This document shows positions 9,402 through 29,203 of a DNA stretch of 39,749 bases, in pieces. A program made the translations under genes and the position numbers. Numbering within the stretch: position 1 is the stretch's first letter; each line of letters starts with the position of its first letter. The stretch lies in the IMG/VR virus record IMGVR_UViG_2541047827_000012; one strand, written 5' to 3'. The notes beneath the pieces were generated by a model. It did no database searches. It was not told the origin of the DNA and was given only the letters and a program-made list of their open reading frames with translations. Source of the DNA: a virus (Duplodnaviria; Heunggongvirae; Uroviricota; Caudoviricetes).

Positions 9402-9402
9402 T

Positions 9403-9414
9403 GTGACATGTCAC
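9403..9414. repeat. 12-bp palindrome GTGACATGTCAC (copy 1 of 3)
   Basis: Exact 12-mer shared with 26927-26938 and 29192-29203; overlaps the stop codon of 9411..9707 and abuts its terminator. Confidence 0.8.
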
Positions 9415-9707
9415 GTCCCTTTTCTGAATGATAGCCATTCGAAAAATGATGACATTCCACCGCAGACAATAGCAAAGATGATCCCACCAAAGAAGAGAAG
9501 GCCAGCCTGCCACCACTCCCACCGCCATACATCCACAGCGCCAACCATACCAACAATCGCTCCAACAAATGGAATATAGCTCACGATGAAAGCAATGGGG
9601 GCTGCAATTATCCAGTGCAATCCCCACCATGATTCAAGCCCAGCCATAATTGCTGCCAACTGAAAAAGACCAACGACGATATAAACAATGAATCCTATAG
9701 CTTGCAT
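9411..9707 (-). CDS. Small integral membrane protein (3 TM, Trp-rich), unknown function
   Basis: SD AGGTGA before ATG 9707; 98 aa, almost entirely hydrophobic helices. Confidence 0.55.
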   Translation of the reverse strand: MQAIGFIVYIVVGLFQLAAIMAGLESWWGLHWIIAAPIAFIVSYIPFVGAIVGMVGAVDVWRWEWWQAGLLFFGGIIFAIVCGGMSSFFEWLSFRKGT

Positions 9708-9719
9708 GTAGTCACCTAT

Positions 9720-9893
9720 TTACCCAGTAAAAATAAGAGGCCTCCCCTCAATAAGGCTTGCAACAAGAACTACTCCCTGCACAACAAAGATGAACCAGCA
9801 AATAGCTTGAGTCTGAGGGTTAAGAAAATATTTGTAGCGGTCAATAAATAACAATACACCAGAAATTATCACACTCAAAATAATTAAAAACAC
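9720..9893 (-). CDS. Putative 57-aa hydrophobic membrane peptide (GTG start), not in the supplied ORF track
   Basis: My own translation: GTG at 9893 preceded by SD AAGGAAG, encoding VFLIILSVIISGVLLFIDRYKYFLNPQTQAICWFIFVVQGVVLVASLIEGRPLIFTG; stop abuts the SD of the next gene; AT-rich. Confidence 0.35.
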   Translation of the reverse strand: MFLIILSVIISGVLLFIDRYKYFLNPQTQAICWFIFVVQGVVLVASLIEGRPLIFTG

Positions 9894-9902
9894 AACACTT
9901 CC

Positions 9903-12377
9903 TTATTGCGGAGTGACATCCTGAGGTCGCCACCAGTATGTCTGGTTAAACTCTTTCTTCGAACGTTGCTCCATTTTACGCAAATAGCCTGGTGAAAAAT
10001 ACTCCTGCATCTGGTTAAAGATCATGTGATCGAGAGCCGCCTTCAAGTACCAGAGATTCGCACCAGGCATCAAACCTTTCCCCAGCTTCACCAGATCACC
10101 ACCAGTCTGCTCACTCTTCCCTTCCACAGCATTTAACGGTATGCCCTGAGCAATCTTCACTACGTCATCAACTAGACCAGCTACCGGGCCAAGCATCGAC
10201 GCCAGCGCGCCGCTTCCGTACCTAGTGTGATCTGACAATAAAAAGTCACCGTAAAGGCCAAGACCACCACCTTTCAGTAGAGCACCAAGCCAGAATTTTG
10301 CGGCATCTTCTCCTGTCATCTCTCGAGGATTACGACCAGACGCAAGGTCGTTAAGTTGTTGCGACAAAGCGCCAAGAATGGTCGTACTGGCAATAAACGT
10401 CGCAATATATGCCGCACGCCCACCAGCAGACGGCATACCCATAGCGCGTGACCAGTGACGCATAACAACCGAGATAGGGAACGATTTAAACAGGAAAACA
10501 CTTCTCGTTAATTCACCTTTCCATGTTCCACGCTGAATACCAGAACCGGTTATCAGTTGCTCACGTGCTCCCGGTGTAATAACAGCCATATCAACTTCTT
10601 CAGTTACGGCACCGAGCAGTTTACGCATTGCCTCAAATTTCACGCGTTCAGGCTCACCAAGATGTTTAACTGCTGAATCAGGGATACGCATAATGCTTTC
10701 CGGTGTCAGCATCGTATTATTACCGTTCCCCCAGTCCTCCTGTTGCGCCAACTTCCATACGCTCCAGTCTGTGTCAGTAATCCCTTTGCTTTTCAGGATA
10801 CGAAAATCAGAGTCATCGAGGCGACGAAGGTCTGGTGTCCGTGACACTACTTCTCCCAGGCTTCCCATCATGGTTACGCCATAGGCGCGCTTGTGCGCAT
10901 CTGACCATGCTGTAAGCCCACTGGCACGCATTACCGCCGTTGCAGCCCAACGAGACACAGACGGCCCCATATTATCCATCGCCCAGCGGTTAACGCTGCC
11001 AAGTAGAGATTCCATCGCCAGACCAGCGCGGCGCGCCCGCGCAAGTTCTGTACGGTTCGTTGGGTCCATAGCTTCAAGCTGGTTGCGGAATAACTGGTTC
11101 ATTGGAAGGTTGGTAACCTTCGCAGACAGATACATGGTTCCAAGATCAGAGAACGATGACAGCAACGCGGATCCGAGTCTGCTGGCAACCAGCCAGTTGC
11201 GGATATTGTCAGACCATCGCGCGATGTGCGGATTCGCTACAGGCTGTGTCTTTCCGGAAATAAAGTTGTACAGATTCTCTGTGTTGTTCGCCAGCCGCTC
11301 GACTTTACCGGTTTTACTCGGGTTAGCTGTTGCCGTTTCTGCCTTCACCTGATCAAGAAGAGAGCGGAAAACATGATCGGGGTTTGGACCATATGTTTCC
11401 ACCAGTGCAATATCTTTACTGATACCTTCCAGGTGACCGACCATGATTTCCCATAGAGAGCGATCGCCATAAAGTTGCTGATATTGCAGATAGGAATCTG
11501 CATCTTTGAAATGTATCTGTCGTGATGCATTACCACGGTTAGCACGTGCGCCGGAAATTCGCATTCCGGTATCAGTAAGCTTATTCAGCCCACCAGTAGC
11601 GATCGTGTTATAAGCCTCTCCAAGAAATGCAGACAACTCGGCATCGTTCATCAGTTGTCCATCGGCTCGGGTATAATATTTGCGATCCAGCTTACCTATA
11701 ACATCGCTAACCCATTTATCTTTTGATACCGCCCCAACCTTTTCCATAGAATGATGTTGAGGGATCCCCCAGTTTTCGAGATAGCCAATGTCCCCACCAG
11801 CATCATTAAACCGGCGGCGCAGTAGCTCTGTCACTTCTCTCCACGCCTTAGCACCTTTTCTTGCTTTAGCATTGCCAGTATTTTGCCCCCGCATTTCATA
11901 TACCAGGTCACGTACGCCCGCTTCATCTTCAAACAGACCAAAAAAGCGAGGATCAACTGCTTCGAATGCCTCCTGCAATTGACTCAATGCATAATCACGG
12001 GTGGCTTTTGTTCTGGATTCAACAGAGAGGAAATTCGATTTACCGTCTGCATTAAAAGCAATAGTACGGTTAAGAGCGCCAAGTTTCCCATCAGCCCCTT
12101 GATAGCTATTGATAAATTTATCCAATCTCTGACGTGCGGCTATAGTGAGGGCCACACGACGTTTCTTTAATGCCGCTTCTCGCTGTAATTCTTCAGATGC
12201 CAATTGTGCTGCACGATACAGCCGCTCTGATTCGGAAAGTTGTCGCCACGACATCGGGTCATCACGAGCAATGGAGCGCATATTTCGATAAATGCGGTCT
12301 TCAATGTTCTGTATTTCTCGCGCCGTTAACGTGCGCTGCGCCGCCTGCTGGACCGCTTGTATACATTCCTGTCTCAT
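9903..12377 (-). CDS. Internal virion/ejection protein (824 aa), T7 gp16-like position
   Basis: Large protein at the distal end of the structural operon; no enzymatic motif recognised; assignment by position. Confidence 0.65.
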   Translation of the reverse strand: MRQECIQAVQQAAQRTLTAREIQNIEDRIYRNMRSIARDDPMSWRQLSESERLYRAAQLASEELQREAALKKRRVALTIAARQRLDKFINSYQGADGKLGALNRTIAFNADGKSNFLSVESRTKATRDYALSQLQEAFEAVDPRFFGLFEDEAGVRDLVYEMRGQNTGNAKARKGAKAWREVTELLRRRFNDAGGDIGYLENWGIPQHHSMEKVGAVSKDKWVSDVIGKLDRKYYTRADGQLMNDAELSAFLGEAYNTIATGGLNKLTDTGMRISGARANRGNASRQIHFKDADSYLQYQQLYGDRSLWEIMVGHLEGISKDIALVETYGPNPDHVFRSLLDQVKAETATANPSKTGKVERLANNTENLYNFISGKTQPVANPHIARWSDNIRNWLVASRLGSALLSSFSDLGTMYLSAKVTNLPMNQLFRNQLEAMDPTNRTELARARRAGLAMESLLGSVNRWAMDNMGPSVSRWAATAVMRASGLTAWSDAHKRAYGVTMMGSLGEVVSRTPDLRRLDDSDFRILKSKGITDTDWSVWKLAQQEDWGNGNNTMLTPESIMRIPDSAVKHLGEPERVKFEAMRKLLGAVTEEVDMAVITPGAREQLITGSGIQRGTWKGELTRSVFLFKSFPISVVMRHWSRAMGMPSAGGRAAYIATFIASTTILGALSQQLNDLASGRNPREMTGEDAAKFWLGALLKGGGLGLYGDFLLSDHTRYGSGALASMLGPVAGLVDDVVKIAQGIPLNAVEGKSEQTGGDLVKLGKGLMPGANLWYLKAALDHMIFNQMQEYFSPGYLRKMEQRSKKEFNQTYWWRPQDVTPQ

Positions 12378-12382
12378 TTAAT

Positions 12383-14185
12383 TTAACCTCTCAAGAAACA
12401 CGCCACAGCAACATCAAACAGGCTGGAATCCTGTATTGCCTGCTCACTTTCCCTGTTCGCTTCATCCAGTACTTCACGCGCACTGCGCGATTGTGGATTA
12501 CCATCATCATCCAGCACGGTGATTATCATGTCAGGTGATTCAAGCAGCGAGTCTTCAGCTATACGCAGATCAATATCTCCTGCCGGATCTGCCATCATTT
12601 TTTGTTCTGTCTGTTGCAATATCTTACCGGGCTCAAAAGGAGCTACTTCTTCTGGCGTCCTGACCTCTGCTGTTTTATAGAATGAAACAGCCTGAGCATT
12701 AAGTTCACTTTCTGCCTGCTGTCGTCGTGCCAGTTCTGCTCGAGCTTCAAAAAACTGACCTCCAGGCTCGTGCGGCGCCAACGCGTTACGAGAAAATTCC
12801 AGGCGTTCTTGTGCCTGCCGGATTCGTTGGTCAATATCGCGAAGTCTGGCCTGTTTATCTGATCGAGCACGAGATAAAGCCTTACCGCTACCGGTTGGCT
12901 CTTCTGCAAGAATTTGTGCGCGCTGTTCAGTGAGATTTTCAATAATTCGTTGGCTATTAGCGATTTCAGACTGGTAAACCTTTCTATCGCCACGCGACAA
13001 AAGCTGCGCGGCCTGTTCTTCAAGCAACCGATTTTCTATAGCGCGCGCCGTTACTCCATCATCTACAGATGACAGAGCCTCATTAACTGCCTGAGACAGC
13101 AGACTCTTGCGCCCAGGAATTTCACTGAAAGATGCAGACTCAACAATGCTGGCAACGTCTACAGGTCTCCCCTGGCTAACATCAGACATGGCTTTTCGCA
13201 GAGCCTGAATGTGCGAATTACGCGAAAGCACGTTGATCGGAACGCCGGGAGCAATATCAATTTCAGCATGATGAGCGGCATTCGCCGCCAGTGCAGCATC
13301 AATATCAACTGGTGAAAAATTTGGTGCGCTTGTAGACTCGCCGCGAGAGTTAATAAATCTGCCGACACCACCAAACGCCACCCCAAGAACAGCATCAATA
13401 GCAATTGCCTGTCGATCCAACACATCATACTGGTTAGCCATTTCGCTATAGCCACCATCACGAAGCGTTTTTGCAGTAAGCCCACGCTGTGCCATACCGA
13501 ACGCAATATTTGTACCTGCGGCATAGGCAATATCTGGCGTTGCACGTACTGCTGTTGCTGCGGCGCGTCGCACTGAACTTTCACCCGTCCGCGCAAGCTG
13601 AGCCGCCACACCTTCCGCCAGCGCACCACCAGCACGTAACCCGAGGCTCATAGGGATCAGTGTTCCGGCACCAGCAGTAATACCCTGCACTAATCCCGCT
13701 TCCTGCGCCGTCCTGAAATCAACACCCTGTGCTGTCAACCGTTCAAACTCAGAAAAACCCTGTAGAGAAGTTACCGCCGCAGCACCTCCGACCGGACCAC
13801 CGAGCGTTGTACCGACAACAGCCTGCCCGCCCATATCGAACAACCCATAAAGGACCTGCCCGGCGGTTCCGGTTGTCGCGGCATCAGGCGTCAGCCGCTT
13901 AACCTGCTGCTCTGCTAGTTTTCTCTGCTCAGCAATGTATGAAACTGAAGTGTCATTGAGCGAGGTGTTTTCGTTAACAAGCTGAGCAATCGGGGATACG
14001 ATTTTATCCATCCCTGCCCATAGCAACTGATCTGGCTTTGCCACCAGCCCGGAGTACAAACCAGACAATGCCGCTCCTACAGCATTGTCGAAAAAACCAA
14101 CATCGCTGTTAAAGCCAACTGGATTTGATGCTGCTTCGTCAAGCTGCTGATTCTGGTTTACTGGATTAAGGCCAAAGTAACTCAT
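12383..14185 (-). CDS. Internal virion/ejection protein (600 aa)
   Basis: Gly/Ala-rich N-terminal half, coiled-coil C-terminal half; in the tail-tube/internal-core block. Confidence 0.65.
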   Translation of the reverse strand: MSYFGLNPVNQNQQLDEAASNPVGFNSDVGFFDNAVGAALSGLYSGLVAKPDQLLWAGMDKIVSPIAQLVNENTSLNDTSVSYIAEQRKLAEQQVKRLTPDAATTGTAGQVLYGLFDMGGQAVVGTTLGGPVGGAAAVTSLQGFSEFERLTAQGVDFRTAQEAGLVQGITAGAGTLIPMSLGLRAGGALAEGVAAQLARTGESSVRRAAATAVRATPDIAYAAGTNIAFGMAQRGLTAKTLRDGGYSEMANQYDVLDRQAIAIDAVLGVAFGGVGRFINSRGESTSAPNFSPVDIDAALAANAAHHAEIDIAPGVPINVLSRNSHIQALRKAMSDVSQGRPVDVASIVESASFSEIPGRKSLLSQAVNEALSSVDDGVTARAIENRLLEEQAAQLLSRGDRKVYQSEIANSQRIIENLTEQRAQILAEEPTGSGKALSRARSDKQARLRDIDQRIRQAQERLEFSRNALAPHEPGGQFFEARAELARRQQAESELNAQAVSFYKTAEVRTPEEVAPFEPGKILQQTEQKMMADPAGDIDLRIAEDSLLESPDMIITVLDDDGNPQSRSAREVLDEANRESEQAIQDSSLFDVAVACFLRG

Positions 14186-16695
14186 TGCGGAATATCTCCG
14201 GAGAATCTCTGACGCTTCTGTGTCAGATCAAGAACAACGGGAGAACCATCATCTTTTAGCAGATAACCAGTACCAAGTTTCACCAGGTACTGACTATCGC
14301 CGTAACTTTGCAAACCATACTGACCAGGCGGTGTTTTTATCCCTGTGCCAACAACTTGTTCATTCCAAGCCTGATTAACCTGCTTATCGAATTGCTCTGC
14401 AGACATTCCCCACGGCAAAAGAACATTCCCCATTCCGTTATAGTCATGCACGCCACCTGTAGCTACGTTAACAGCCTGTTTCCAGATATCATTGTCAATT
14501 TCGCCTGATACCACGCCTTTTTTCGCCATCACACCAGCGTAATAGTCCTTTGCGATCTCGTATGCCATTGATGCCCCCTGAGCATCACCAGCAAATGCAT
14601 TCTTCACCATGTCAGAAAACTCAAGGCGAAGATCAGCATCTTTAGGCATCGGAATACCTTTCTCGTCATCAGTACCTTTACGAGCCGCCGCGCCAGCAAG
14701 AATTGTCTGCGCAGCGGTTTCTGGAGACACGGAAACATCCGGATTAAACCAGTTTTTTTCTGCCAAAATACCACCTGGCTTATCCATCAGTATCCCGGCA
14801 ACGGCAGCAGATGGAGCGTTGGCACTGATCTGCTGTAGTGCTGACATATACACCTGCCCACCACCAGTGCTCTGCCTGATGGTATCGAGATATGCTGCCT
14901 GTTGGGAAACGGGCGCATCACGAAAGAAAACACCGATCTGATTGGCCTCGTCTTTGGAAAAGAACGTCAGTGGAGTGCCATATGACTTAGCAAGGTCACT
15001 GACCTGAGCAGCACGCAAGGCAACGCTCTGTCCAAAGTTATCCTTATTGCTCATGTCGATAGGCTTTGCCTGTCCGGCGGCAAGAGAGAACTGTACAGGA
15101 TCAGCCTGTCGCTGCTTTATCACCTGACTTGCAGCCGACACAACGTTGTCATAAAGAGCGGCTCGTGCCGCATAACCCTCCCCTGTCTCACCAGTATCCG
15201 GGCGTAATTGCTCAACATATGCTGTAATGCTGCTTGTCGGCATGTTGCGGAAAGAGCCTATATACTGTCCGGCGATTTGCGTATTTCTGAACTCGGTATA
15301 TCGCAGGTTTCCTTCTCTTACTCCATAAGCTGCAATAAAATCAGCCTCACCAGGTGGGTTAGGAAATTCAACGCCACGCATATACGCAGCTGTCGCATCG
15401 CGAACCTGGCTGTCAATCATCGTTTTATATTCAGCCTGCTGCTGCCGACGCAGTTGATCCGCCTGTCGCATAAAACTTGCCTGCGCCTCAGGAGATGCCG
15501 CATCGAATGCTGCATTACCGGTATAGCGTTTGGTGTTGGTTGGAATTGTTGATAAACCAAGTGCTGCACTGACACCAGCAGTTAACTGCTGATCACTGTA
15601 TGGCTGGCTACCGTTCTCATGATGGATAATGGCTGCACAAAGCGCCTTCAGGGTATCAGGATTAGATGCATCGAGAGGCTCATCAGCAGAAACGCCAAGT
15701 TGTTCGCACACTGCTTTGATATACGACATAGTGTCATTTTTATCAGCAGGCGGTGCCCAGCGATTAATTATCTCGCTGACGGTATCAATACCCTGCCTCT
15801 GATACGACATCAGGTTCCGCCCTAATGCACGAATCCCGTGTTCAGGTGTTTCGAATTTAGCAAATCGACCATCATCACCGGTCTGGCCTACCCACGGATT
15901 AGTTTTGCTGTATTCGAGATTTCCTGGGTTATTGTTGCGTATGCCACGGGCACGCTCGGAAGAGTCACTATCTGCTACAGCACGGCGAGCTCCAGCAGCA
16001 GTATCACTTAACTCGCCATTACTTTGGATGAATGCGGTCGCATTGTTTGCCGACCACTGGGACAATGCGGCATCAGCAACCTTCTCTTTAAACTCGATTT
16101 TCTTGGCCTGGATTTGCTCGTCGCTCCAGCCATGCGCAATGCCGTAATCCTCAATTTGCTGGAAAGTTTGCTTATTAGCCAATACGTATGCGGCGTTGTC
16201 GCCATACAATGCTGCGGCATTTTTACCATTGTTCAGCAGCGTCGCCTGAAACTGGCCTTCTTCGTAGGCATTTATTTGCCCTATCTCGTGCCGCCCGGCC
16301 TGCGTAGTGAACTGAATGCGCTGCTGCTGCGCCTGCTGCATGAAAGCATTACGAGCCTGTTCATCCGGCAGCGACATAGCCAATTGTTCGACCTGAGCAT
16401 CAAACTGCTGCGTATACTCATGGCCTTTTCCAATAGCATTTTTCCCTTTCAGGTTAAGCAATCCTGTTTCAGGATTATTCAGCAAATCACTGCTTATCTG
16501 ACTGAGGTTAAGAGATGCCTCCTGAGCCAAGGCAATATTGGCACGCTGTTTTGCCTGCCCAAAAACATCAATTGCCTCTTCCCCTGCCAGAACAAAAGCA
16601 TCACCAATACCTGGCTGAGAAAACGTCTGCAAGCCTGCTGACTGAACTCCACGGCTCTCAACCTGACGTCCGGATACTGTTGGTACGACTGGCAT
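14182..16695 (-). CDS. Internal virion protein (about 837 aa) with conserved NNPGN-containing domain
   Basis: Start set at ATG 16695 (SD GGAGG; overlaps upstream stop as TAATG) rather than track start 16770; contains RNNNPGNLEY...FAKFETPEHG motif of unknown function. Confidence 0.65.
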   Translation of the reverse strand: MPVVPTVSGRQVESRGVQSAGLQTFSQPGIGDAFVLAGEEAIDVFGQAKQRANIALAQEASLNLSQISSDLLNNPETGLLNLKGKNAIGKGHEYTQQFDAQVEQLAMSLPDEQARNAFMQQAQQQRIQFTTQAGRHEIGQINAYEEGQFQATLLNNGKNAAALYGDNAAYVLANKQTFQQIEDYGIAHGWSDEQIQAKKIEFKEKVADAALSQWSANNATAFIQSNGELSDTAAGARRAVADSDSSERARGIRNNNPGNLEYSKTNPWVGQTGDDGRFAKFETPEHGIRALGRNLMSYQRQGIDTVSEIINRWAPPADKNDTMSYIKAVCEQLGVSADEPLDASNPDTLKALCAAIIHHENGSQPYSDQQLTAGVSAALGLSTIPTNTKRYTGNAAFDAASPEAQASFMRQADQLRRQQQAEYKTMIDSQVRDATAAYMRGVEFPNPPGEADFIAAYGVREGNLRYTEFRNTQIAGQYIGSFRNMPTSSITAYVEQLRPDTGETGEGYAARAALYDNVVSAASQVIKQRQADPVQFSLAAGQAKPIDMSNKDNFGQSVALRAAQVSDLAKSYGTPLTFFSKDEANQIGVFFRDAPVSQQAAYLDTIRQSTGGGQVYMSALQQISANAPSAAVAGILMDKPGGILAEKNWFNPDVSVSPETAAQTILAGAAARKGTDDEKGIPMPKDADLRLEFSDMVKNAFAGDAQGASMAYEIAKDYYAGVMAKKGVVSGEIDNDIWKQAVNVATGGVHDYNGMGNVLLPWGMSAEQFDKQVNQAWNEQVVGTGIKTPPGQYGLQSYGDSQYLVKLGTGYLLKDDGSPVVLDLTQKRQRFSGDIPQ

Positions 16696-21498: not shown

Positions 21499-21499
21499 C

Positions 21500-21937: not shown

Positions 21938-21988
21938 CTTCTTTCTCCATTAGTGGGTCTGTTACGACCCACAGGTTAATAACAGGCG

Positions 21989-22981: not shown

Positions 22982-22989
22982 TTCCTCTC

Positions 22990-23691
22990 TTATTTGCCAT
23001 AGAGCACTTCGGCCGCACTACGCTGGCCTTCATTACCACCGGTGACCATGCCATCTTCAGACATCGCCTTTCCGATTTTCACGAACGTTTTGACCAGATC
23101 AGGGTGATTACCCAGCCCGGTGGTGTTCAGATATTCTTTGAGTTCAGGTGTCCCGAACTGGTCAAGCGCACGCTGTGCGGCGCTAAGGTTAGAAATCAAC
23201 TTGTCGCCACCGATTTCTTTGTCAGCTTTTACATCAGCAGCCCACTGCTCGGTTGTTTTCTGCCAGGCTTCTGCCTGGCGCTGCTGCACACCTGCCAGAA
23301 TCTTCGGATAAGCATCAACCAGCTTTTGCGCTTGCTCGTTGGTCAGGTTAAGTTCTCGCGCCACCGGCTCGAATTCCTTCAACGCTTCTGTATCCAGCTC
23401 TACGCCTTCGGCAGCCTGAAACTCGTACTTCTCAGGCGCACCCTCTGGTTTATCGCCGTCCTTTTTTTCATCCTGCTTATCGTTTTCAGGCTTTTTGTCA
23501 TCAGCAGGTTTATCGCCATCAGCAACAGGTTGTGGCTTATCACCTTCCGATTGTGATGGATCACCAACTGGAGCAGGGTTATCACCTGCAGGCGCTGACG
23601 GTTCTGACGCAGCCGGAGCTGCTCCACCATCGACTGGTTGCTCATTGCAAAGACGGCGATACAGCAAACGCTCAAATAAATTCATGATCAC
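22990..23691 (-). CDS. Scaffolding protein (233 aa)
   Basis: Acidic Pro/Asp/Glu/Lys-rich N-terminus and helical C-terminus; between portal and capsid. Confidence 0.6.
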   Translation of the reverse strand: MIMNLFERLLYRRLCNEQPVDGGAAPAASEPSAPAGDNPAPVGDPSQSEGDKPQPVADGDKPADDKKPENDKQDEKKDGDKPEGAPEKYEFQAAEGVELDTEALKEFEPVARELNLTNEQAQKLVDAYPKILAGVQQRQAEAWQKTTEQWAADVKADKEIGGDKLISNLSAAQRALDQFGTPELKEYLNTTGLGNHPDLVKTFVKIGKAMSEDGMVTGGNEGQRSAAEVLYGK

Positions 23692-23984
23692 TCCTGTTCA
23701 CTGGCCTCTTTGGCCATCTTCAAATACTGTTCAGGGCAATGCGCCATAACGCGCTGAAACAGTTCCAGCGCCAGATTGCGTTGCCCCTCATTAAATGCCA
23801 TTGCCATAGCGTCCATCGGTGAGATAGCGGAAAACACACGGCCTTTCTCCAGCACCGACCAGACAACGCGACGCCCCTGTTCACTGCTCATGACAAAGCG
23901 AATGTCATCAATTTCACGCTGTGCCATGTCACGTTGCTTACGGGCGCTTTCTTCTTTCAGTTGATCATCTTCGTAATCTGTCAT
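23688..23984 (-). CDS. Hypothetical head protein (98 aa)
   Basis: Overlaps portal stop and scaffold start by 4 nt each. Confidence 0.5.
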   Translation of the reverse strand: MTDYEDDQLKEESARKQRDMAQREIDDIRFVMSSEQGRRVVWSVLEKGRVFSAISPMDAMAMAFNEGQRNLALELFQRVMAHCPEQYLKMAKEASEQE

Positions 23985-25660
23985 TGTGATTGCCCACCCT
24001 GACCACTAACTGCATTCGCCATAGCTGACAAAACACTCGGATCCGAAGTTTTAGCTTCGCTTAGCGTCTTGGCGCCCTGTGCCGCCGCCATTCCCATCGC
24101 CATCATTTGTTGCTGCTGTTGCTGCTGTGCCCGTTGCTGGCGAGCCTGCTCAACCTGTTCCTGCGGAACAATGACGGTTGGAGACACTCCGGACATATCA
24201 GCGAATGCATCGATCGCCTGATCAACGTTGAGTTTGTCGAGAGCTTCTGGTTTCGCTTGCGCAAGTTGACCAATGAAGTTGACCGTAGACGCCAGACTGG
24301 ACAGGCCGATAGACTTCTGCGCCTGAGCCATGACGGAAATGTATTCGACCTTCAGGGGCATACCTTCCATCGCGTCAGGCGGTGGCGGCAGCATGTTTTT
24401 ACGCACCATCATCGAGAAAGCGCGGTCAATGAGAGGATTAAGACATTCGTCGTTCAGACGCTCCAGAACCGGCCCCAACATCAGAAGTTTTTCTTCTTTC
24501 ATTTCGATCACCGCTTCAACAGGCATCGAGCGGGTATTGATGTTCTGCAACATCATGAACAGATCGACAAAGTAGGCGCTGTTAATGATTTGACGAGTGT
24601 CCTGAATGTCTGCCACCAAATCTGCTGTACTGGGGTTAACCAGATAAGCAGGCCTGAAACCATCCTGACCAGTAATCTGATCGATATACGTGATGTCGCC
24701 AGGAAGAAGGGAGGCACGCTGATTCTTGAGGGAAGTCGGAGCAACCATCGGCGGATTGGTGGCTTTATCAATCAACTGCGACTTGCGCTTCTGGAGAAGC
24801 TGCAATGCCTTAACAGGTCCAAGCGCCAGCATACCCGGGCATGATGATCCATAAACATCTTCGCCGTTAACTTCCCAGCGCGGAGCCATAATTGGAAACT
24901 CATCGAATCCGGACTCACGCAACAACTTGTCGTTATCGCCACCAACCTCGTAATAAACCGATTTGAATGGCTTGTTCTTGCTATCCAGCTTCGATGTATC
25001 GCGGTCAATGTTCGGGTAAACCGAATGCATCACTTCAATCCACTTCTCGTAGGTTCCGCTTTCCCACATGCTTTTTACGGATTCGCTGACGTTATTTAGC
25101 CCGAACTCCTGAACAAGCTGACGAACAGTCATAGAGAACTTGCGAAAACAGGTGTCCACACTGCCACGAGGTGAGTTAGCCAGGTAGTAACTGCCTATCG
25201 GGAATGGCATTGTGCGAATGATGTCCTCATCATCCTCCAGTACCGCCATTGCACCGGTGCTGTATGTGCCGAGGCTTCCGTATAACTGCGGCAGCGACTG
25301 ATAGAGATTCGACTTATTGAACATATCGTTCATGCGGTTCTGCACCGCCTCAAGCCACAACTTAACAGGGCCATAATCCATCATTTCAGGATCTGGCGTA
25401 GCCAGGCGAAACCACGGACGCGCGGGGCTTGTGATGCCTGACATCATGCCGCTGGCGAGAGTGCGCGCCGCCATAGTCCCGGTCGAATCAATAATGCGTG
25501 TATTGCGTCGATCGTTACGGTTGACCTCAGAAGTCAGAAAGCGGGAACCACGCGGGTTGATGTAATCACTCAACTCGCGCCAGTGCGGCTCGAACGACTG
25601 ACGCTCGCTTTCAAGTTGTGCGAACTGTTTGTTCAATCGCTCTTTAGTTGTTTCCGCCAT
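23981..25660 (-). CDS. Portal (head-to-tail connector) protein, 559 aa
   Basis: Size, position downstream of terminase, Gln/Ala-rich C-terminal tail. Confidence 0.75.
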   Translation of the reverse strand: MAETTKERLNKQFAQLESERQSFEPHWRELSDYINPRGSRFLTSEVNRNDRRNTRIIDSTGTMAARTLASGMMSGITSPARPWFRLATPDPEMMDYGPVKLWLEAVQNRMNDMFNKSNLYQSLPQLYGSLGTYSTGAMAVLEDDEDIIRTMPFPIGSYYLANSPRGSVDTCFRKFSMTVRQLVQEFGLNNVSESVKSMWESGTYEKWIEVMHSVYPNIDRDTSKLDSKNKPFKSVYYEVGGDNDKLLRESGFDEFPIMAPRWEVNGEDVYGSSCPGMLALGPVKALQLLQKRKSQLIDKATNPPMVAPTSLKNQRASLLPGDITYIDQITGQDGFRPAYLVNPSTADLVADIQDTRQIINSAYFVDLFMMLQNINTRSMPVEAVIEMKEEKLLMLGPVLERLNDECLNPLIDRAFSMMVRKNMLPPPPDAMEGMPLKVEYISVMAQAQKSIGLSSLASTVNFIGQLAQAKPEALDKLNVDQAIDAFADMSGVSPTVIVPQEQVEQARQQRAQQQQQQQMMAMGMAAAQGAKTLSEAKTSDPSVLSAMANAVSGQGGQSQ

Positions 25661-25674
25661 TTCAATGACTCCGG

Positions 25675-25881
25675 TTACTGACCAAGCAGCGTTTTACCGC
25701 TGGTATTAGCGGTTGATGTGTCGCCCTGAGAACCGGTAAGCAGCGTAGAACTACGACCAGCAGCAGCGCGACGGCGACGTGTTTCTTCGTCGCGGGCATC
25801 AACAACGGCGGCATCCTGCTCCTGTGGTGCTGCCTGAACTTCTGGTGTTGCAGGCACTGATGGTGAGCTACCCATGCACAT
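25675..25881 (-). CDS. Small hypothetical protein upstream of portal (68 aa)
   Basis: ORF in frame with plausible start; low-complexity Ala/Gln/Arg-rich; the alternative frame 25662..25901 looks less protein-like. Confidence 0.3.
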   Translation of the reverse strand: MCMGSSPSVPATPEVQAAPQEQDAAVVDARDEETRRRRAAAGRSSTLLTGSQGDTSTANTSGKTLLGQ

Positions 25882-25971
25882 ATCAATGACTCCGTACGCA
25901 ATTAAATTATTACCAATTTAACCACATATGATTTATTTATCGTAGGTGGTTGACATTTAACGCATAAATTA

Positions 25972-25986
25972 TTACCTTTCAGGTAA
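25972..25986. promoter_or_regulatory. Operator-like palindrome TTACCTTTCAGGTAA at head-operon promoter
   Basis: Identical 15-mer to the site at 6587; lies upstream (minus direction) of the 25881/portal operon next to a TTGACA hexamer. Confidence 0.55.
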
Positions 25987-26308
25987 GTAAAGAGTTCATT
26001 CCGGTTATTAACCTGACTGGCTTGTCGTTAAATTGAACAGATGGGGTGAGCTTTTATTTTGAGCAGTACGGTGTATGGCACATGCGTCGATAGCGGTCTG
26101 GATACGTTTAAGGGGCACCCTCCCTTGCTCGAGCAAACGAACCAGGTAGCCGGAATGTGCAAGTCGAGCGGTTTTATTCCGCGCACGGGGATTCACCATC
26201 CCGGCGATTCGGTGTGACGCCTCGGAAGAGACGAGGGTACAACGATGAGAGCATTTATGGAGCCGCGACAAAGTGTGGCGCCTTAACAGGCTAAGTGCTC
26301 TCAGCGTT

Positions 26309-26385
26309 GTGGCATTAGCTCAGTTGGACAGAGCAACCGCCTTCTAAGCGGTTGGTCGCAGGTTCGAATCCTGCATGCCACGCCA
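26309..26385 (+). tRNA. tRNA-Arg (anticodon TCT, reads AGA)
   Basis: Cloverleaf folded by hand: acceptor GTGGCAT/ATGCCAC, D-arm GCTC-AGTTGGACA-GAGC, anticodon stem ACCGC/GCGGT with loop CTTCTAA, T-arm GCAGG-TTCGAAT-CCTGC, discriminator G plus CCA. Confidence 0.9.
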
Positions 26386-26547
26386 GAATCACGCCTAAGG
26401 ACCGTGATGCCAGAAGTTCCAGGTGCTTGGCGGTGATGGTTTCCTTTGAAGGACTATCACCGCCCTTTTTACAGCAGGACGCCATTGCGATGACTTCATG
26501 CTGTAAACCAGTACAGCCACGGAAGGCATAACTCATTGCTTCCAGTT

Positions 26548-26570
26548 CGCCCGGTTCGCCGGGCATTTTT
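26548..26570 (+). terminator. Rho-independent terminator between tRNA and gp49-like gene
   Basis: GCCCGG-ttcg-CCGGGC hairpin followed by ATTTTTTT. Confidence 0.5.
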
Positions 26571-26583
26571 TTAAGGTGAGATT

Positions 26584-26922
26584 ATGAACAACCAGCAAAT
26601 CGAAAAAGAAATCGTTGAGAAAGGCAAAACGGCACCGCGCGTTACGCCAGGCCATATCGAAAGCATTATTCTTGCGGAAACGTACTTCACTGCTGCTGAT
26701 GGGGCTATTGCAACTGGCGATGACTATCACGACAGTTTGGCTCTGCTGACATTTTGTGTATTGACTCTACAAAATGGCTTCACCGTCACCGGAGAGAGTG
26801 CCTGTGCAAGCCCTGAAAACTTTGACGCAGAAATTGGTCGGAAGATTGCCCGGCAGAATGCTGTAAACAAAATCTGGATGCTCGAAGGTTACTTGCTGAA
26901 GCAGAAGCTAAGCGAGCAATAA
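26584..26922 (+). CDS. Phage Gp49-like protein (112 aa), function unknown
   Basis: SD AAGGTGA before ATG 26584; resembles the small gp49/Sf6 gp66-like phage protein family by recollection. Confidence 0.55.
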   Translation: MNNQQIEKEIVEKGKTAPRVTPGHIESIILAETYFTAADGAIATGDDYHDSLALLTFCVLTLQNGFTVTGESACASPENFDAEIGRKIARQNAVNKIWMLEGYLLKQKLSEQ

Positions 26923-26926
26923 CACC

Positions 26927-26938
26927 GTGACATGTCAC
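26927..26938. repeat. 12-bp palindrome GTGACATGTCAC (copy 2 of 3)
   Basis: Exact 12-mer, 5 bp after the gp49-like stop and 4 bp before the terminator hairpin. Confidence 0.8.
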
Positions 26939-26942
26939 AAAC

Positions 26943-26970
26943 AGCCAGCCGATGAGCTGGCTTTGTTTTA
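26943..26970 (+). terminator. Rho-independent terminator of the tRNA/gp49 moron
   Basis: AGCCAGC-cgatga-GCTGGCT hairpin followed by TTGTTTTA. Confidence 0.6.
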
Positions 26971-27012
26971 TCCTCATCAGAGGATATCAACGACATTATC
27001 CCCACCAGCGGA

Positions 27013-28488
27013 TTAAGCATACGGGTCATAATCTGTGATGGCCTTGCCTTGCTGGTTCTGCTGCCCAGGAATTCGCAGACGCTTCGACACAGGGAAAGCA
27101 AACGTCAGCAGTAGCGCATCGCCTTTACCAGGAGAACGCCCAAGCCGCTCCTTGATATCTTCCTTCGGTTCGATAACGATTTTACCGTCCACTCGAACTT
27201 TGTACTCTGCCGCAGACAGGTCGTCCGCTGTTTCCTGGTCATCCAGCATGCCGCCCAGCCTCAGCCATGTCTTGCATGAATTGAACATCTCCCCACGCTT
27301 GTTAAGCATCTGCGGGTCAGTAGACGCGCCACCGAACGGAACAAGTTGCCATGTACGACCCCAGCCATCACCGATTGACTTCAGACCAGTTCCGTAACCG
27401 AAGTCGATGAACACTGCGTCAGCCTGGTACTGGTCTTCAAAGTCAGCGATACGCTTCGCCATAATCAGATCGTCGGTAGTCTTGTTGCCAGTCCACAGCA
27501 CCTTACTGTGTAGCCCCTGCCGTAGGTATATCACCGCGTCATCAACGCCTGAATATGCCGGGTCAACACCGATTATCACCGGAGCATGCGCCACCTGCGC
27601 AGCGGTTACCACCCGTTTCATTGCCTCATCAGTAAGACCGGTAGGGATAAACTGCAATTCAGATGCATCAGGGAATATGCCGCGCACACGGATTTTAACG
27701 AAGTCGCTGTCTTCCCCGTAGTCATCAACCCATTTCTGCAACTGCTGTTTGTTAGTGCCTTCCACCGTCCGGCTGTCAATCTGCGCAGTTTTCCAGCGGT
27801 GTTTATATTTGCGGAAACATTCGCGGAAACGCCCGGTGTTACGTGTAGGGTTTCCGAACGCCACCCAGATAATCTCAGTGTCTTCGTCCGTAAGCGCACC
27901 CTCAGCAACTTCCCACACCAGATCCGCAATGTTCGACGCTTCATCGAATACCACGATGATGCGTTTGCGCTCGTTGTGTAGTCCGGCGAATGCCTCAGTG
28001 TTGTGCTCAGACCAGGGGATTGCGTCAGCTCGCCACCGCTTGTCGTGCCCAGGATCATTGCTGTACATCGCGGTAGCGGTACAGGTAAACCAGTCTTTCG
28101 TGATAGCAAGGTTCGACCACTTGATAATTTCCGGCCAGGTCTTCGTTCGTAGCTGGTTGTCGGTGTTGGCGGTCACCACGACCTTACAATCCTCGCAAGT
28201 GGACATGCCCCAGTTGATCAGCATTGAGATGAATGCGGATTTACCAATACCGTGACCAGAAGCGCGTGCCAGCATAAGCGGCTGATAGCGCGTCTCTGGA
28301 TTCTGCAGGTGATCACGTATCTCTCGGAACGCATCAGCCTGCCACTGACGTGGGCCGGTAGCATGTGCCAGTTCAGTCCCCTCTTCCCCCCACGGGAACG
28401 CATAGAGGGCATAGCCAAGCGGATCGTGAGTGAACCCTGCAATATCATCGATCAACTGCTCTTCAGGAGATAACGCTGTATCTGTCAC
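27013..28488 (-). CDS. Terminase large subunit
   Basis: P-loop ARASGHGIGKS and acidic nuclease-domain motifs; 491 aa; ATGA overlap with TerS stop. Confidence 0.9.
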   Translation of the reverse strand: MTDTALSPEEQLIDDIAGFTHDPLGYALYAFPWGEEGTELAHATGPRQWQADAFREIRDHLQNPETRYQPLMLARASGHGIGKSAFISMLINWGMSTCEDCKVVVTANTDNQLRTKTWPEIIKWSNLAITKDWFTCTATAMYSNDPGHDKRWRADAIPWSEHNTEAFAGLHNERKRIIVVFDEASNIADLVWEVAEGALTDEDTEIIWVAFGNPTRNTGRFRECFRKYKHRWKTAQIDSRTVEGTNKQQLQKWVDDYGEDSDFVKIRVRGIFPDASELQFIPTGLTDEAMKRVVTAAQVAHAPVIIGVDPAYSGVDDAVIYLRQGLHSKVLWTGNKTTDDLIMAKRIADFEDQYQADAVFIDFGYGTGLKSIGDGWGRTWQLVPFGGASTDPQMLNKRGEMFNSCKTWLRLGGMLDDQETADDLSAAEYKVRVDGKIVIEPKEDIKERLGRSPGKGDALLLTFAFPVSKRLRIPGQQNQQGKAITDYDPYA

Positions 28489-29081
28489 TGATTACCATCC
28501 TGACGTTCTTTGAGTCGCTTCCTGGCTGCTGCTATGCGATCAGCAATTGTCACATTCACATTAACATCCAGACGTTCTTTGAACGCGTTGACATCAACAT
28601 GCTTACCAATCAGCTCAAGGTTCTTCACCTTGTCAGGCCATTTAATTTTTTTGAGGATTGTCTCTATCGAATCCTCGTTCATGTTCATGATGGTCGATGA
28701 CAGATCAAAGCCACTAAGCGTAGTGCGCCAGATTTTCGGCCACTCACGGATTGGTTTAAGGCTCCCATCGTCGTTGAGGATGTCGATCACGTCCATCTGG
28801 TCGATCTCCACCAGGCGCATGAGAACGTAATCAGCACTGACGCGCATTCGTTTGTTGCGCTCCTCCATCAACTCGGCAATCCGTTTTTGAATGCGTTCAT
28901 CGCGCATCATGACACTGGCTTTAACTGCCGCTGTATTTGGGGAGAATCCTGCGTTAATCGCTGCCTGAGTCTGGTTTTCAGGCGTTTTGATGTATGACTG
29001 GCAATAAGCCTCCTGCATTGCTGTTAGTGGCTTAAATTGCGTTGATTTGCGTTTATAGGTTTTAGGTTCAGCAGGCATCAT
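28485..29081 (-). CDS. Terminase small subunit
   Basis: Start set at internal ATG 29081 because the track N-terminal extension runs through upstream direct repeats; typical TerS size and position. Confidence 0.65.
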   Translation of the reverse strand: MMPAEPKTYKRKSTQFKPLTAMQEAYCQSYIKTPENQTQAAINAGFSPNTAAVKASVMMRDERIQKRIAELMEERNKRMRVSADYVLMRLVEIDQMDVIDILNDDGSLKPIREWPKIWRTTLSGFDLSSTIMNMNEDSIETILKKIKWPDKVKNLELIGKHVDVNAFKERLDVNVNVTIADRIAAARKRLKERQDGNQ

Positions 29082-29088
29082 AACCACC

Positions 29089-29120
29089 GTGGTAATAGTT
29101 ACCGTTGTGGTAATAGTACC
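29089..29120. repeat. Direct repeat GTGGTAATAGT(T)ACC x2 upstream of TerS
   Basis: Two copies at 29089-29103 and 29107-29120; each contains GGTAA-N3-(T)TACC, the operator half-sites in inverted order. Confidence 0.6.
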
Positions 29121-29122
29121 AT

Positions 29123-29150
29123 GCAAAATAAAGCCGCCATAGTTGGCGGC
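29123..29150 (-). terminator. Rho-independent terminator upstream of the TerS/late operon
   Basis: GCCGCC-aactat-GGCGGC hairpin followed on the minus strand by TTTATTTTGC; 42 nt before the TerS start. Confidence 0.55.
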
Positions 29151-29191
29151 AGTATTCAAAACCCATCAAATTCATCATGCATAATCTACTC

Positions 29192-29203
29192 GTGACATGT
29201 CAC
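29192..29203. repeat. 12-bp palindrome GTGACATGTCAC (copy 3 of 3)
   Basis: Exact 12-mer overlapping the stop codon of 29200..29541, about 40 nt upstream (minus direction) of the terminator at 29123-29150. Confidence 0.8.

Follow-up and report, generated by a model that had tools for sequence, protein, structure and literature searches.

The window analysed here, a stretch of 39,749 nucleotides from a temperate podophage of the phiV10/epsilon15-like type, raises the question of why one short palindrome recurs at three gene ends, what recognises it and what it does there.

Three palindromes between stop codons and terminators

Scanning of the window confirmed three identical copies of the 12-bp palindrome GTGACATGTCAC, as given in a preliminary description of this DNA, and located a fourth near-copy with one mismatch at 23921. 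That description noted one flanking base on each side shared by two of the copies; the sharing goes further, the identity common to all three being 14 nt (CGTGACATGTCACA) when copy 1 is taken on the minus strand. The fuller consensus of the site is Y-GTGAC-AT-GTCAC-R and its motif form is GTGAC-N2-GTCAC. The copies and the features around them are as follows.

9403-9414, no strand: palindrome copy 1, covering the TGA (9411-9413) of the last small membrane-protein gene of the virion operon
26927-26938, no strand: palindrome copy 2, 4 nt past the TAA of a plus-strand cargo gene
29192-29203, no strand: palindrome copy 3, covering the TGA (29200-29202) of the PHROG 536 gene
9411-9707, minus strand: variable cargo gene for a hydrophobic membrane protein of 98 aa (PHROG 3075), stopping inside copy 1
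26584-26922, plus strand: cargo gene of Pfam PF13876 (N4 gp49 / Sf6 gp66 family), antisense to the late genes
29200-29541, minus strand: candidate binder of 112-113 aa, PHROG 536 (epsilon15 gp49 / N15 gp46 family), last gene of the early-right operon
9375-9402, minus strand: intrinsic terminator AGGCCGCTTTCGCGGCCT followed by TGTTTTT, hairpin 9402-9385, 0 nt after copy 1 (scan and fold)
26943-26972, plus strand: intrinsic terminator AGCCAGCCGATGAGCTGGCT followed by TTGTTTT, hairpin 26943-26962, 4 nt after copy 2 (scan and fold)
29123-29150, minus strand: intrinsic terminator GCCGCCAACTATGGCGGC followed by TTTATTTT, hairpin 29150-29133, 41 nt after copy 3 (scan and fold)
29080-29114, no strand: two repressor-operator-like sites, ATAACC-N5-GGTAAT and GTTACC-N5-GGTAAT, between the terminator and the small terminase gene

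Every copy in the window is placed between a stop codon and an intrinsic terminator (3/3). The earlier statement that the copies lie upstream of terminators was borne out by an independent scan for hairpins and T-runs, which gave the distances listed, and all three adjoining elements are G+C-rich hairpins followed by a U-run. The palindrome itself is not an intrinsic terminator, as its stem is of 4 bp (-1.2 kcal/mol) and a U-run is absent. The plus-strand terminator is located where the cargo unit meets the convergent gene for the terminase large subunit (stop at 27013), and the terminator after copy 3 parts the early operon from the packaging genes. Two copies overlap stop codons, as had been described: the ORFs 9411-9707(-) and 29200-29541(-) stop inside them, in both cases with the TGA at palindrome positions 2-4. 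The stop of ORF 26584-26922(+) is 4 nt ahead of copy 2.

A promoter-like match at copy 3 (9/12, with GTGACA as the -35) lacks conservation among relatives, whether of the epsilon15 type or not, and a convincing conserved promoter overlaps none of the copies in the window. The two sites at 29080-29114 are a separate dispersed site family outside the palindrome system. The epsilon15 record annotates the motif ATTACC-N5-GGTAAT as repressor binding sites; an epsilon15-like prophage repressor operator was rejected as an identity for the palindrome because the motif differs and none of the ~13 such sites in the window (including 29080 and 29098) coincides with a copy.

The preliminary description regarded three chance copies as essentially impossible, which is too strong on the window alone. 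Although the expected count of one given 12-mer in the window is 0.0024, some 12-mer was present three times in 22% of the windows simulated under a Markov-1 model. The comparative evidence is decisive rather than the window statistics, since the same positions are occupied in epsilon15 and phiV10 and the motif is enriched ~60-fold around the genes of one family. Together with the palindromic 14-mer identity and the different sequences of the three hairpins, this effectively refutes an origin by chance or as a mere side effect of terminator duplication, and the palindrome is almost certainly a real, selected element.

Conservation in phiV10, epsilon15 and close relatives

In epsilon15, although it is only ~76% identical and its flanks have diverged, each of the three equivalent places carries the exact 12-mer. 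In phiV10, two equivalent copies are exact and one copy with a single mismatch spans the ends of the record. The palindrome that was to be looked for in related phages is thus found at the corresponding positions.

Copy 1 equivalents: phiV10 19493; epsilon15 19517
Copy 2 equivalents: phiV10 2262; epsilon15 2142
Copy 3 equivalent: epsilon15 39612

Of 80 close relatives, 75 keep copy 3. Each of the three copies is a mosaic junction in relatives, with 7 distinct flanks in 11 loci for copy 1, 10 in 68 for copy 2 and 6 in 99 for copy 3. The cargo position at copy 1 is occupied by at least 7 different sequences and at least 10 different gene ends precede copy 2, all with stops 4-5 nt 5' of the palindrome. 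Across 69 distinct composites of site, hairpin and T-run, drawn from many independent cargo contexts, the site precedes the hairpin by 0-5 nt; the adjoining hairpins drift and the 12-mer remains unchanged.

The motif follows one gene family

Of 11 window genes tested, only the PHROG 536 gene was present in 55/55 loci, whereas the others were found in 12 or fewer. We surveyed 48 loci from different bacterial species (917 kb), picked through the PHROG 536 protein alone. At least one copy of GTGAC-N2-GTCAC was found in 45 of these loci, and the total of 67 copies in 917 kb compares with a mean of 1.04 for all motifs made of a 5-mer, N2 and its reverse complement, and with 13 for the runner-up. 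Every other spacing from N0 to N8 gave 0-1 copies. In 25 loci a copy lies between -1 and +27 nt from the stop of the PHROG 536 gene itself. Three loci are without a site within 20 kb of the gene, and an Aeromonas homologue is accompanied only by the variant site GTGACCGGACAC, in two copies. The link between gene family and motif is very strong and specific.

The motif is found in phage or prophage sequences of Escherichia, Salmonella, Pectobacterium, Xenorhabdus, Proteus and Vibrio. Three copies each are carried by the myovirus ZF40, the linear-plasmid siphoviruses N15 and phiKO2, and Vibrio K233, which are structurally unrelated phages; in ZF40, N15 and phiKO2 one copy overlaps or follows the stop of the homologue, and overlap of a copy with its own stop codon is likewise seen for a distant homologue on contig L259. 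Many sites in ZF40, N15 and the Proteus and Xenorhabdus prophages are intragenic. The exact 12-mer is kept within the coding sequences of diverged homologues (CII-like PHROG 163, PHROG 2479 and N15-type repA), which argues for selection at the DNA level. Neither the 12-mer nor the protein-plus-site pair was found described in the literature searched.

A candidate binding protein

The AlphaFold model of the PHROG 536 protein, a confident one (pLDDT 94), has a ribbon-helix-helix (RHH) fold and a Cys4 zinc knuckle. The predicted order begins with a basic N-terminal helix (AERKAAQRARQ), in which R8 and R13 are near-invariant, and continues through the ribbon-helix-helix and the zinc knuckle to a C-terminal helix. 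The beta-ribbon is less conserved. The top-ranking structural matches of the model include MatP-matS, and no homology to N or Q families was found. As judged from the model, the fold is of a DNA-binding type. Given the co-occurrence of the motif with the gene and the predicted ribbon-helix-helix/zinc-knuckle fold, the palindrome is probably the operator of the PHROG 536 protein. From the co-occurrence and the symmetry of the site, we infer that a dimer binds it. A binding site for a dimeric protein was one of the roles raised in the preliminary description; it is the best supported of the three offered there and now has a candidate binder, the protein encoded at 29200-29541(-).

Recognition as DNA or RNA

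The site could instead be read in the nascent transcript, where GUGACAUGUCAC would form a 4-bp stem with a CNNG tetraloop recognised by the PHROG 536 protein. Such a nut-like or 3'-UTR element would suppress or enhance the adjoining terminator, or control translation of the next gene. The order of gene, site, hairpin and U-run at a spacing of 0-5 nt is in keeping with this, as are the Q/N-like placement of the PHROG 536 gene, which closes the early operon directly ahead of the late genes, the basic, lambda N-like arginine-rich N-terminus, and the Shine-Dalgarno of the next gene directly 3' of the site in N15, phiKO2, L017, L020, L049 and K233. However, the 12-mer alone as RNA is marginal (z ~0, no better than shuffles), the half-sites never co-vary across loci, so that the stem has no compensatory change in any lineage, and the flanking Y and R occur at frequencies expected of independent rather than paired positions. 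Centres that are not symmetric are found in either orientation with respect to transcription, as in copies at the 3' end of the PHROG 536 gene itself (AG in L210, CT in L236), and the repA copy in N15 and L253 is oriented opposite to the other two copies. A dimer on duplex DNA, unlike an RNA site, would need the strict two-fold symmetry that is seen and that extends to the Y/R flanks, and the predicted fold is of the duplex-DNA-binding type. Recognition thus looks like that of DNA rather than of a hairpin, and an RNA-level element is improbable. For the RNA processing or termination control proposed earlier, the position 5' of terminators stands in this phage group and several other contexts, but this is no general rule, many copies in other phages being intragenic without a terminator near, and the RNA fold is weak.

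Comparison with known systems

The palindrome most resembles matS, the site of the Ter macrodomain organiser MatP of E. coli, in having GTGAC/GTCAC half-sites, a protein of RHH fold (predicted for PHROG 536), and few dispersed copies in coding and non-coding DNA (PMC3116907, PMC3603311). matS itself is a 13-bp sequence, GTGAC[AG]N[TC]GTCAC, with a 3-bp spacer, and prophages avoid it altogether (PMC3603311). The palindrome is not matS, as its spacer is of 2 bp in all copies, with 67 N2 and 0 N3 copies around the 48 PHROG 536 genes; an N3 copy is absent from the window, phiV10, epsilon15, ZF40 and N15. The matS sites are bound by MatP and cluster in the chromosomal Ter macrodomain, whereas the palindrome is in phage DNA. 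MatP has a four-helix bundle and a coiled coil where the PHROG 536 protein has a Cys4 zinc knuckle, sequence homology between the two was not found, and the PHROG 536 protein is phage-encoded with one site tied to its own stop codon. The SlmA site is also a 12-bp palindrome, GTGAGTACTCAC (PMC3116907), but only the outer GTGA/TCAC agree, the inner four bases being CATG here and GTAC there.

Ribbon-helix-helix (Arc/MetJ/CopG) proteins have a beta-alpha-alpha fold, two of which pair into a two-stranded sheet, and their dimers recognise symmetric or repeated DNA sites in a sequence-specific way. A small, predicted and presumably dimeric RHH fold, a short symmetric target and genes on mobile elements are shared with the RHH repressors (P22 Arc and Mnt, CopG, omega, and the antitoxins MazE, ParD and TacA). 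Their operators overlap promoters, usually their own, whereas the palindrome copies are at gene 3' ends or intragenic, and the extra zinc knuckle is outside those families. With lambda N/nut and Q/QBE, the system shares a gene at the end of the early operon ahead of the late genes, a site preceding terminators and a basic N-terminus; lambda Q, moreover, holds a zinc-binding motif and binds DNA. In the nut site, a boxB RNA hairpin accompanied by boxA lies past the early promoters and is bound by the arginine-rich N protein. No boxA/boxB-like structure, covariation or conserved promoter and pause is seen around the palindrome, and copies 1 and 2 show no QBE-type layout, in which a binding element within a constitutive promoter is followed by a short leader and a terminator. 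The weak hairpin, the absence of stem covariation, the positions at operon ends rather than near early promoters and the lack of an N-family match led us to reject a nut site.

Dispersed protein-binding palindromes are a known feature of N15 and phiKO2 through their SopB centromere sites, CGACC-N2-GGTCG, of which four copies were recovered by the same counting. We take these to be the putative plasmid partitioning sites annotated in the phiKO2 record, without a comparison of coordinates. Their sequence and protein (ParB/SopB) are different, and the GTGAC motif also occurs in integrating phages without a partition system. Integron attC sites share with the present element an imperfect or perfect palindrome right after or over the stop of highly variable cargo genes, but they are of 57-141 bp with R''/L''/L'/R' boxes whereas the palindrome is of 12-14 bp, is also present inside conserved genes and goes with a DNA-binding protein instead of a recombinase. 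An attC identity was rejected as there is no integron integrase; integrase-like genes of relatives are limited to a P4-type phage integrase.

Possible role at transcription-unit boundaries

The best explanation overall, to which we give a probability of about 0.55, is that the palindrome is the operator of the PHROG 536 protein acting at transcription-unit boundaries. A dimer would sit on the palindrome with its basic N-terminal helices (R8, R13) reading the invariant GTGAC half-sites and the beta-ribbon over the variable central dinucleotide. Copy 3 lies at the end of the early-right operon ahead of the packaging genes, copy 2 at the end of a tRNA/cargo unit running antisense toward the terminase gene, and copy 1 where the virion operon ends against convergent accessory genes. 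The bound protein would act on RNA polymerase to gate or reinforce termination and read-through, as a roadblock, an insulator or a terminator-proximal modulator. This effect on transcription and the division of labour between helix and ribbon are deduced, and boundary or termination control as the job of the protein is put forward only tentatively. Where a terminator-like hairpin lies within 25 nt, 22 of 28 sites are on its 5' side, a bias that represents only about six independent contexts. A hairpin was found within 45 nt of 53% of sites and of 32% of random positions by a permissive detector, and terminator adjacency is not a family-wide rule. A roadblock directly ahead of an already good terminator looks redundant, and in L218-L220 a site and terminator separate the scaffold gene from the capsid gene within a single late operon, a place at which blocking would be harmful. 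ZF40 and N15 carry separate Q-like antiterminators beside PHROG 536, so the protein is not the general late switch.

Other readings account for parts of these data. In a MatP/matS-like architectural role, which we consider unlikely, the RHH protein would bind the dispersed sites and bridge, loop or mark the phage DNA with no direct effect on transcription, for module insulation, DNA organisation for replication or packaging, or displacement of SMC-type complexes; the sites would lie between stop and terminator only because, in a compact genome, non-coding DNA of this kind is where they do least harm. Somewhat less probable is a recombination linker, in which the 12-14-mer and terminator form a boundary where morons or modules are swapped with no dedicated binder. 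It would serve as a homologous or illegitimate joint, persisting through repeated use, in a phage that encodes RecE/RecT-type functions. The mosaic junctions at all three copies, the unrelated cargo genes that stop just 5' of copy 2 or use the TGA of the site, and the recognisable modules that the copies delimit speak for it. Yet the motif accompanies a single small gene family in podo-, myo- and siphoviruses alike (45 of 48 species), copies sit at fixed codons within the CII-like, PHROG 2479 and repA genes, the 12-mer stays while adjoining hairpins drift, and 12 bases are very short for RecT-type recombination. Of the moron-junction boundary suggested earlier, the mosaicism thus stands, but any conserved island at operon ends would look alike.

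A site for a host protein (MatP, SlmA or CRP) borrowed by the phage is very improbable. The CRP consensus is TGTGA-N6-TCACA, and tGTGA-N4-TCACa of the palindrome resembles its half-sites with a spacer of 4 instead of 6. The outer GTGA....TCAC is common to SlmA and the half-sites are common to matS (PMC3116907), against which stand the inner four bases for SlmA and, for MatP, the N2 spacer and the avoidance of matS by prophages (PMC3603311). The motif also follows the phage gene and not the host taxon, across six genera from Escherichia to Vibrio.

The protein-plus-site pair recurs in many unrelated temperate phages. There is a small chance that PHROG 536 and its sites are a phage-borne MatP/matS-like DNA-organising system, or a new DNA-tethered RNA polymerase factor at terminators. 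A DNA-tethered factor would have its site just behind the hairpin-coding DNA, with the centre, in rough geometry, ~35-40 bp upstream of the release point. A DNA-organising system, its half-sites one base closer than in matS, would occur widely among temperate phages of Enterobacterales and Vibrio; it might loop or insulate genome modules, or clear phage DNA of host SMC-type complexes (MukBEF, or SMC-based defences).

Copies of the palindrome in the window

An exact scan for GTGACATGTCAC, the 12-bp palindrome of the form GTGAC-N2-GTCAC, gave 9403, 26927 and 29192 as its sole positions in the window, in agreement with the three identical copies of the preliminary description. One flanking base on each side had been described as common to two of the copies; flanks are indeed shared, but the identity is wider, and a 14-mer CGTGACATGTCACA is present in all three when copy 1 is read on the minus strand. 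The hairpin and U-run described after each copy were recovered by an independent scan, with distances counted in the direction of the gene ending at that copy.

Palindrome copies and adjoining terminator-like features
9403-9414, palindrome copy 1
9402-9385, minus strand, terminator-like hairpin and T-run, 0 nt downstream of copy 1
26927-26938, palindrome copy 2
26943-26962, plus strand, terminator-like hairpin and T-run, 4 nt downstream of copy 2
29192-29203, palindrome copy 3
29150-29133, minus strand, terminator-like hairpin and T-run, 41 nt downstream of copy 3

Two genes, ORF 9411-9707(-) and ORF 29200-29541(-), have stop codons that overlap a copy, as had been reported, their TGA being palindrome positions 2-4, while ORF 26584-26922(+) stops 4 nt ahead of copy 2. 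The earlier statement that chance is essentially impossible could not be upheld from the window alone, as some 12-mer is present three times in 22% of Markov-1 simulated windows; a palindromic triple reaching 14 nt is much rarer than any 12-mer triple. A copy with one mismatch, GTGCCATGTCAC, lies at 23921-23932 within ORF 23688-23984(-). phiV10 has a one-mismatch copy GTGACATGGCAC at 5306, apparently at the matching position, and epsilon15 has no counterpart, so this copy may be a weak fourth site or a coincidence.

The RNA of 29110-29215(-), which spans copy 3 and the terminator, has an unusually stable predicted fold (-30.5 kcal/mol, z = -3.6); in this fold GAGUAGAUUAUGCAUG, just after the palindrome, pairs with GCAUGGUACUAUUAC, just after the terminator, enclosing the terminator hairpin.

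Conservation in close relatives

Megablast with window 8000-30000 as the query retrieved phiV10-like podophages that align over ~90% of it at 98% identity (phiv142-3, HEMP4, ZX5, O157 typing phages 9 and 10, and phiV10), and epsilon15 at ~76%. Comparison with the annotated phiV10 and epsilon15 records places the late genes of the window on the minus strand and the end of the early-right operon at 29200.

Late genes according to the phiV10 and epsilon15 records
~28485-29075, minus strand, small terminase
27013-28488, minus strand, large terminase
down to 9903, minus strand, portal and virion proteins

The 224-aa small-terminase ORF 28485-29159(-) (41-715 in the retrieved locus L001), as annotated in phiV10, would have a TTG start inside the terminator hairpin, and the true start is likely the ATG ATG CCT at about 29076, as in epsilon15. 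A tRNA-Arg (anticodon TCT) at 26309-26385(+) is encoded on the other strand than the late genes and precedes the accessory (cargo) gene ending at copy 2; ORF 26315-26566(-), the phiV10 p04 equivalent, may be spurious because this tRNA overlaps it.

A search for the 12-mer in related prophages, as the preliminary description had proposed, found it at the same three positions in epsilon15: behind gp49, in the interval separating the terminase large subunit from the reversed gp50, and behind gp18. The epsilon15 flanks, hairpin sequences included, are unlike those of the window. phiV10 has two exact copies, with a third, carrying one mismatch, across the ends of its linear record. Among 80 close relatives fetched via the protein of ORF 29200-29541(-), a PHROG 536 family member, 75 keep the gene-end copy.

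Scanning IMG/VR with the 14-mer gave at least 120 loci, about half of them related to the window by blastn and the rest without similarity. Several of the latter seem to be unrelated or chance occurrences; iteron-like arrays of GTGAC and a VTCH motif in a tail fibre are examples. In the related loci the palindrome and adjoining hairpin are kept and the gene-side flank is wholly different from phage to phage. Clustering gave seven distinct flanks in 11 loci for copy 1, 10 in 68 for copy 2 and 6 in 99 for copy 3, and therefore all three copies are mosaic junctions.

Association of the motif with the PHROG 536 gene

PHROG 536 is described solely as 'transcriptional regulator' and the family is otherwise annotated as 'hypothetical'. 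It spans podo-, myo- and siphoviruses as well as linear-plasmid prophages, among them epsilon15, phiV10, N15, phiKO2 and ZF40. Even among IMG/VR loci without nucleotide similarity to the window, the palindrome is seen at the C-terminal codons of a PHROG 536 homologue. The comparison was extended to phages having only this protein in common with the window. Pectobacterium myovirus ZF40 (homologue 67% identical) carries three exact copies, two of them within genes (gp08 and the CII-like gp12) and one 3 nt past the homologue gp22. N15 (35% identity) has three copies with a TG/CA centre, of which one precedes the antirepressor operon, one is within repA and one covers the gene 46 stop; phiKO2 has three at the same places. 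The three copies of Vibrio phage K233 (31% identity) have AC or GC as their centre, and one of them lies 19 nt upstream of the small terminase start codon; a P2-like Yersinia phage has one copy. When all 5-mer-N2-reverse-complement motifs are ranked by count, GTGAC comes first or nearly so in each of these phages.

As an unbiased test, the protein profile was run against a single genome from each bacterial species, which yielded 48 loci of ~20 kb, including Citrobacter, Pantoea, Serratia, Pectobacterium, Xenorhabdus, Proteus and Providencia. GTGAC-N2-GTCAC is present in 45 of the 48, and in 25 a copy lies -1 to +27 nt from the homologue's stop, whose TGA usually forms site positions 2-4. The motif has 67 copies in the 917 kb, against a mean of 1.04 over 1024 analogous motifs and 13 for the next best; other spacers, from N0 to N8, occur 0 or 1 time. 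The centre is AT in 56 of the 67 copies, with a Y flank on its left side and an R flank on its right, at frequencies fitting independence and not base pairing. Of 11 window genes tested, the PHROG 536 gene alone is present in 55 of 55 loci, the others in 12 at most. Even a distant homologue (profile E = 3e-9) on a contig of 42% G+C, L259, has the motif over its own stop and a second copy 4.4 kb away. The palindrome belongs with the PHROG 536 protein.

At L259 6273 the first four bases of the site, GTGA, hold both the TGA that ends the PHROG 536 gene and the GTG at which the following gene is called to start, an overlap typical of translational coupling. Aeromonas phage 85AhydR10PP (L255), whose homologue is 32% identical, lacks the canonical site and has GTGACCGGACAC twice, at 230 and 2882, one copy being 25 nt upstream of the homologue start; this may be a lineage-specific half-site variant. 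Tandem sites 27-28 bp apart are present at the gene end in some prophages (L232, 10336/10364; L233, 10336/10363), and in the P2-like Yersinia phage (L205, around 11708) an exact site lies amid degenerate GTGACA-like sequences upstream of a gene. Both arrangements are more operator-like than that of the window.

The PHROG 536 protein

The family comprises ~209 clusters at 50% identity, nearly all stand-alone proteins of 105-135 aa. Searches of Pfam, NCBIfam and PDB sequences with the window protein gave no match, and BFVD returned nothing beyond a fragment of the family itself. An AF2 model from a 26-sequence alignment was poor (pLDDT 62, Foldseek matches meaningless) and was replaced by one from 71 diverse homologues (pLDDT 94.2). 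In the predicted structure a basic helix (5-18) and an extended segment precede helices 30-42 and 52-74, which are followed by a Cys4 knuckle (C79, C82, C91, C99) and a C-terminal helix. The cysteines are nearly invariant, as are R8, R13, E54 and L59. As the half-sites are invariant and the centre variable, the conserved N-terminal helices would read the GTGAC half-sites, with the ribbon lying over the dyad. Homology to MatP, the E. coli Ter macrodomain protein, was rejected (hhalign probability 0.1%).

Comparison with known systems

The MatP site matS is GTGAC[AG]N[TC]GTCAC (PMC3116907, PMC3603311) and the SlmA site is GTGAGTACTCAC (PMC3116907). The sole difference between host matS and the phage motif is the spacer, 3 bp in the former and 2 bp in the latter. 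Prophages avoid true matS (PMC3603311), and none is present in the 48-locus set. Ribbon-helix-helix (RHH) proteins with palindromic operators offer a likeness, in that a candidate RHH protein is paired with a palindrome; however, the phage sites are unusually dispersed, lie near 3' ends and terminators or inside genes, and have a matS-like half-site.

A full-text search of 8 million non-subscription papers gave no match for the 12-mer and found five centre variants only in unrelated papers; papers on epsilon15/phiV10, ZX5 and telomere phages do not contain the palindrome. Nor is it annotated in the GenBank records of epsilon15, phiV10, ZF40, N15 and phiKO2, although those of epsilon15 and phiV10 do annotate terminators and repressor sites. 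Within these papers and records the protein-site pairing appears undescribed.

Location of the sites across phages

Contexts of the site in different phages
(a) PHROG 536 gene, at its 3' end
(b) coding sequence of CII-like genes (PHROG 163), ~75 nt ahead of their stop and invariably read in the frame x-D-M-S-x
(c) following the large terminase gene, where a reversed cargo gene adjoins
(d) space separating the scaffold gene from the capsid gene, with a terminator immediately 3' of the site
(e) coding sequence of early-left genes of PHROG 2479, ZF40 gp08 among them
(f) following a PHROG 427 gene (161 aa), tentatively taken to be head-decoration-like
(g) N15-type repA, where the site keeps a constant codon position
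(h) beginning of a Q-like gene (codons 2-5), the contig having in addition a PHROG 536 gene with its own site

The exact 12-mer is kept at fixed codons of diverged proteins, which speaks for selection at the DNA level. No studied phage was found when the CII-like and Q-like coding contexts were compared with phage records by BLAST. Where a terminator adjoins, the site lies 0-5 nt 5' of the hairpin in 69 distinct composites, and among the 28 sites that have a hairpin no more than 25 nt away, 22 lie 5' of it. These 5'-side cases reduce to about six independent contexts, and the enrichment in the terminator survey is only suggestive because the detector is permissive, 32% of random positions scoring.

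In many relatives (L207, L214, L022, L114, L226, L231-L235, L246 and L248) a TTGACG promoter overlapped by a LexA box (TACTGT-N8-ACAGTA) lies 30-110 nt after the gene-end site and drives a small gene, and in N15 and phiKO2 one GTGAC site closely precedes the antirepressor operon. The sites may be recurrently associated with SOS-controlled antirepressor modules. A PF13876 (N4 gp49 / Sf6 gp66) cargo gene adjoins the palindrome in two arrangements, with the site at its 3' end in the window (26584-26938), whereas in an Enterobacter prophage (L216, 15591-16020) the site precedes the gene start by 25 nt.

Other dispersed repeats

A second dispersed family, ATTACC-N5-GGTAAT, has 15 matches with at most two mismatches in the window, against 1.2 expected.

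ATTACC-N5-GGTAAT sites, 17 bp each
6586, 6966, 8008, 25971, 29080, 29098
31590, 31652, 33574, 33959, 34671, 34733

In epsilon15 this motif is annotated as the binding site of the prophage repressor. Its presence ahead of the small terminase gene and of other late-gene blocks suggests that the repressor directly controls several late promoters. Iteron-like direct repeats CCAAAAACGGGA, three exact with additional degenerate copies, occupy 32860-33060(-) inside the replication-initiator ORF 32487-33278(-) and are probably the phage origin. GATAA-N2-TTATC is present three times (12111, 20059, 22892; 0.03 expected), always inside virion genes, and three times also in phiV10. As a positive control, the same palindrome count recovered CGACC-N2-GGTCG four times each in N15 and phiKO2; these probably correspond to the dispersed partition (SopB) sites annotated in the phiKO2 record.

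Possible function of the palindrome

The palindrome is real and selected as a DNA sequence, and its most economical reading is as the predicted operator of the PHROG 536 protein. We favour an action on transcription at unit boundaries, because each window copy has a stop codon ahead of it and a terminator behind it, unrelated contexts show the same succession of gene, site and hairpin, and the PHROG 536 gene closes the early operon, just ahead of the packaging genes. Against this, a roadblock ahead of a good terminator seems redundant, the site-terminator composite lies inside a late operon in some phages, and many copies are intragenic. The main rival is an architectural role for the palindrome and its protein like that of MatP and matS, of which the phage motif is a version with a 2-bp spacer. 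The preliminary description had also proposed an RNA processing or termination-control element; action as RNA is disfavoured because the hairpin is weak, covariation is absent and the centre orientations are mixed. Its further suggestion of a recombination boundary at moron junctions fits the three mosaic junctions, but a recombination linker leaves both the gene linkage and the intragenic copies unexplained.

Other candidates for the site were rejected. As a -35 element or late-promoter operator it gives weak 9-of-12 matches at copies 1 and 3 only, not conserved in relatives, and the promoter idea therefore fails as a general explanation. A pac site or terminase recognition was dismissed with the N15, phiKO2 and ZF40 sites lying far from the terminase genes, an operator of the prophage repressor with that repressor's motif being different, and an attenuator, in which the 12-mer would pair with terminator arms, with no complementarity visible by eye in the sequences and folds of the three copies.

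An uncharacterised protein family is now paired with a precise 12-14-bp DNA motif, which opens an unexplored level of regulation or DNA organisation in temperate phages to immediate testing. The 2-bp spacer, set against the 3 bp of matS and the avoidance of matS by prophages, raises the question of whether this is an orthogonal phage version of MatP/matS. The sites sit at the exact places of moron exchange and so bear on the structure of phage mosaicism, and motif and gene together form a compact signature for annotating such boundaries in prophages.
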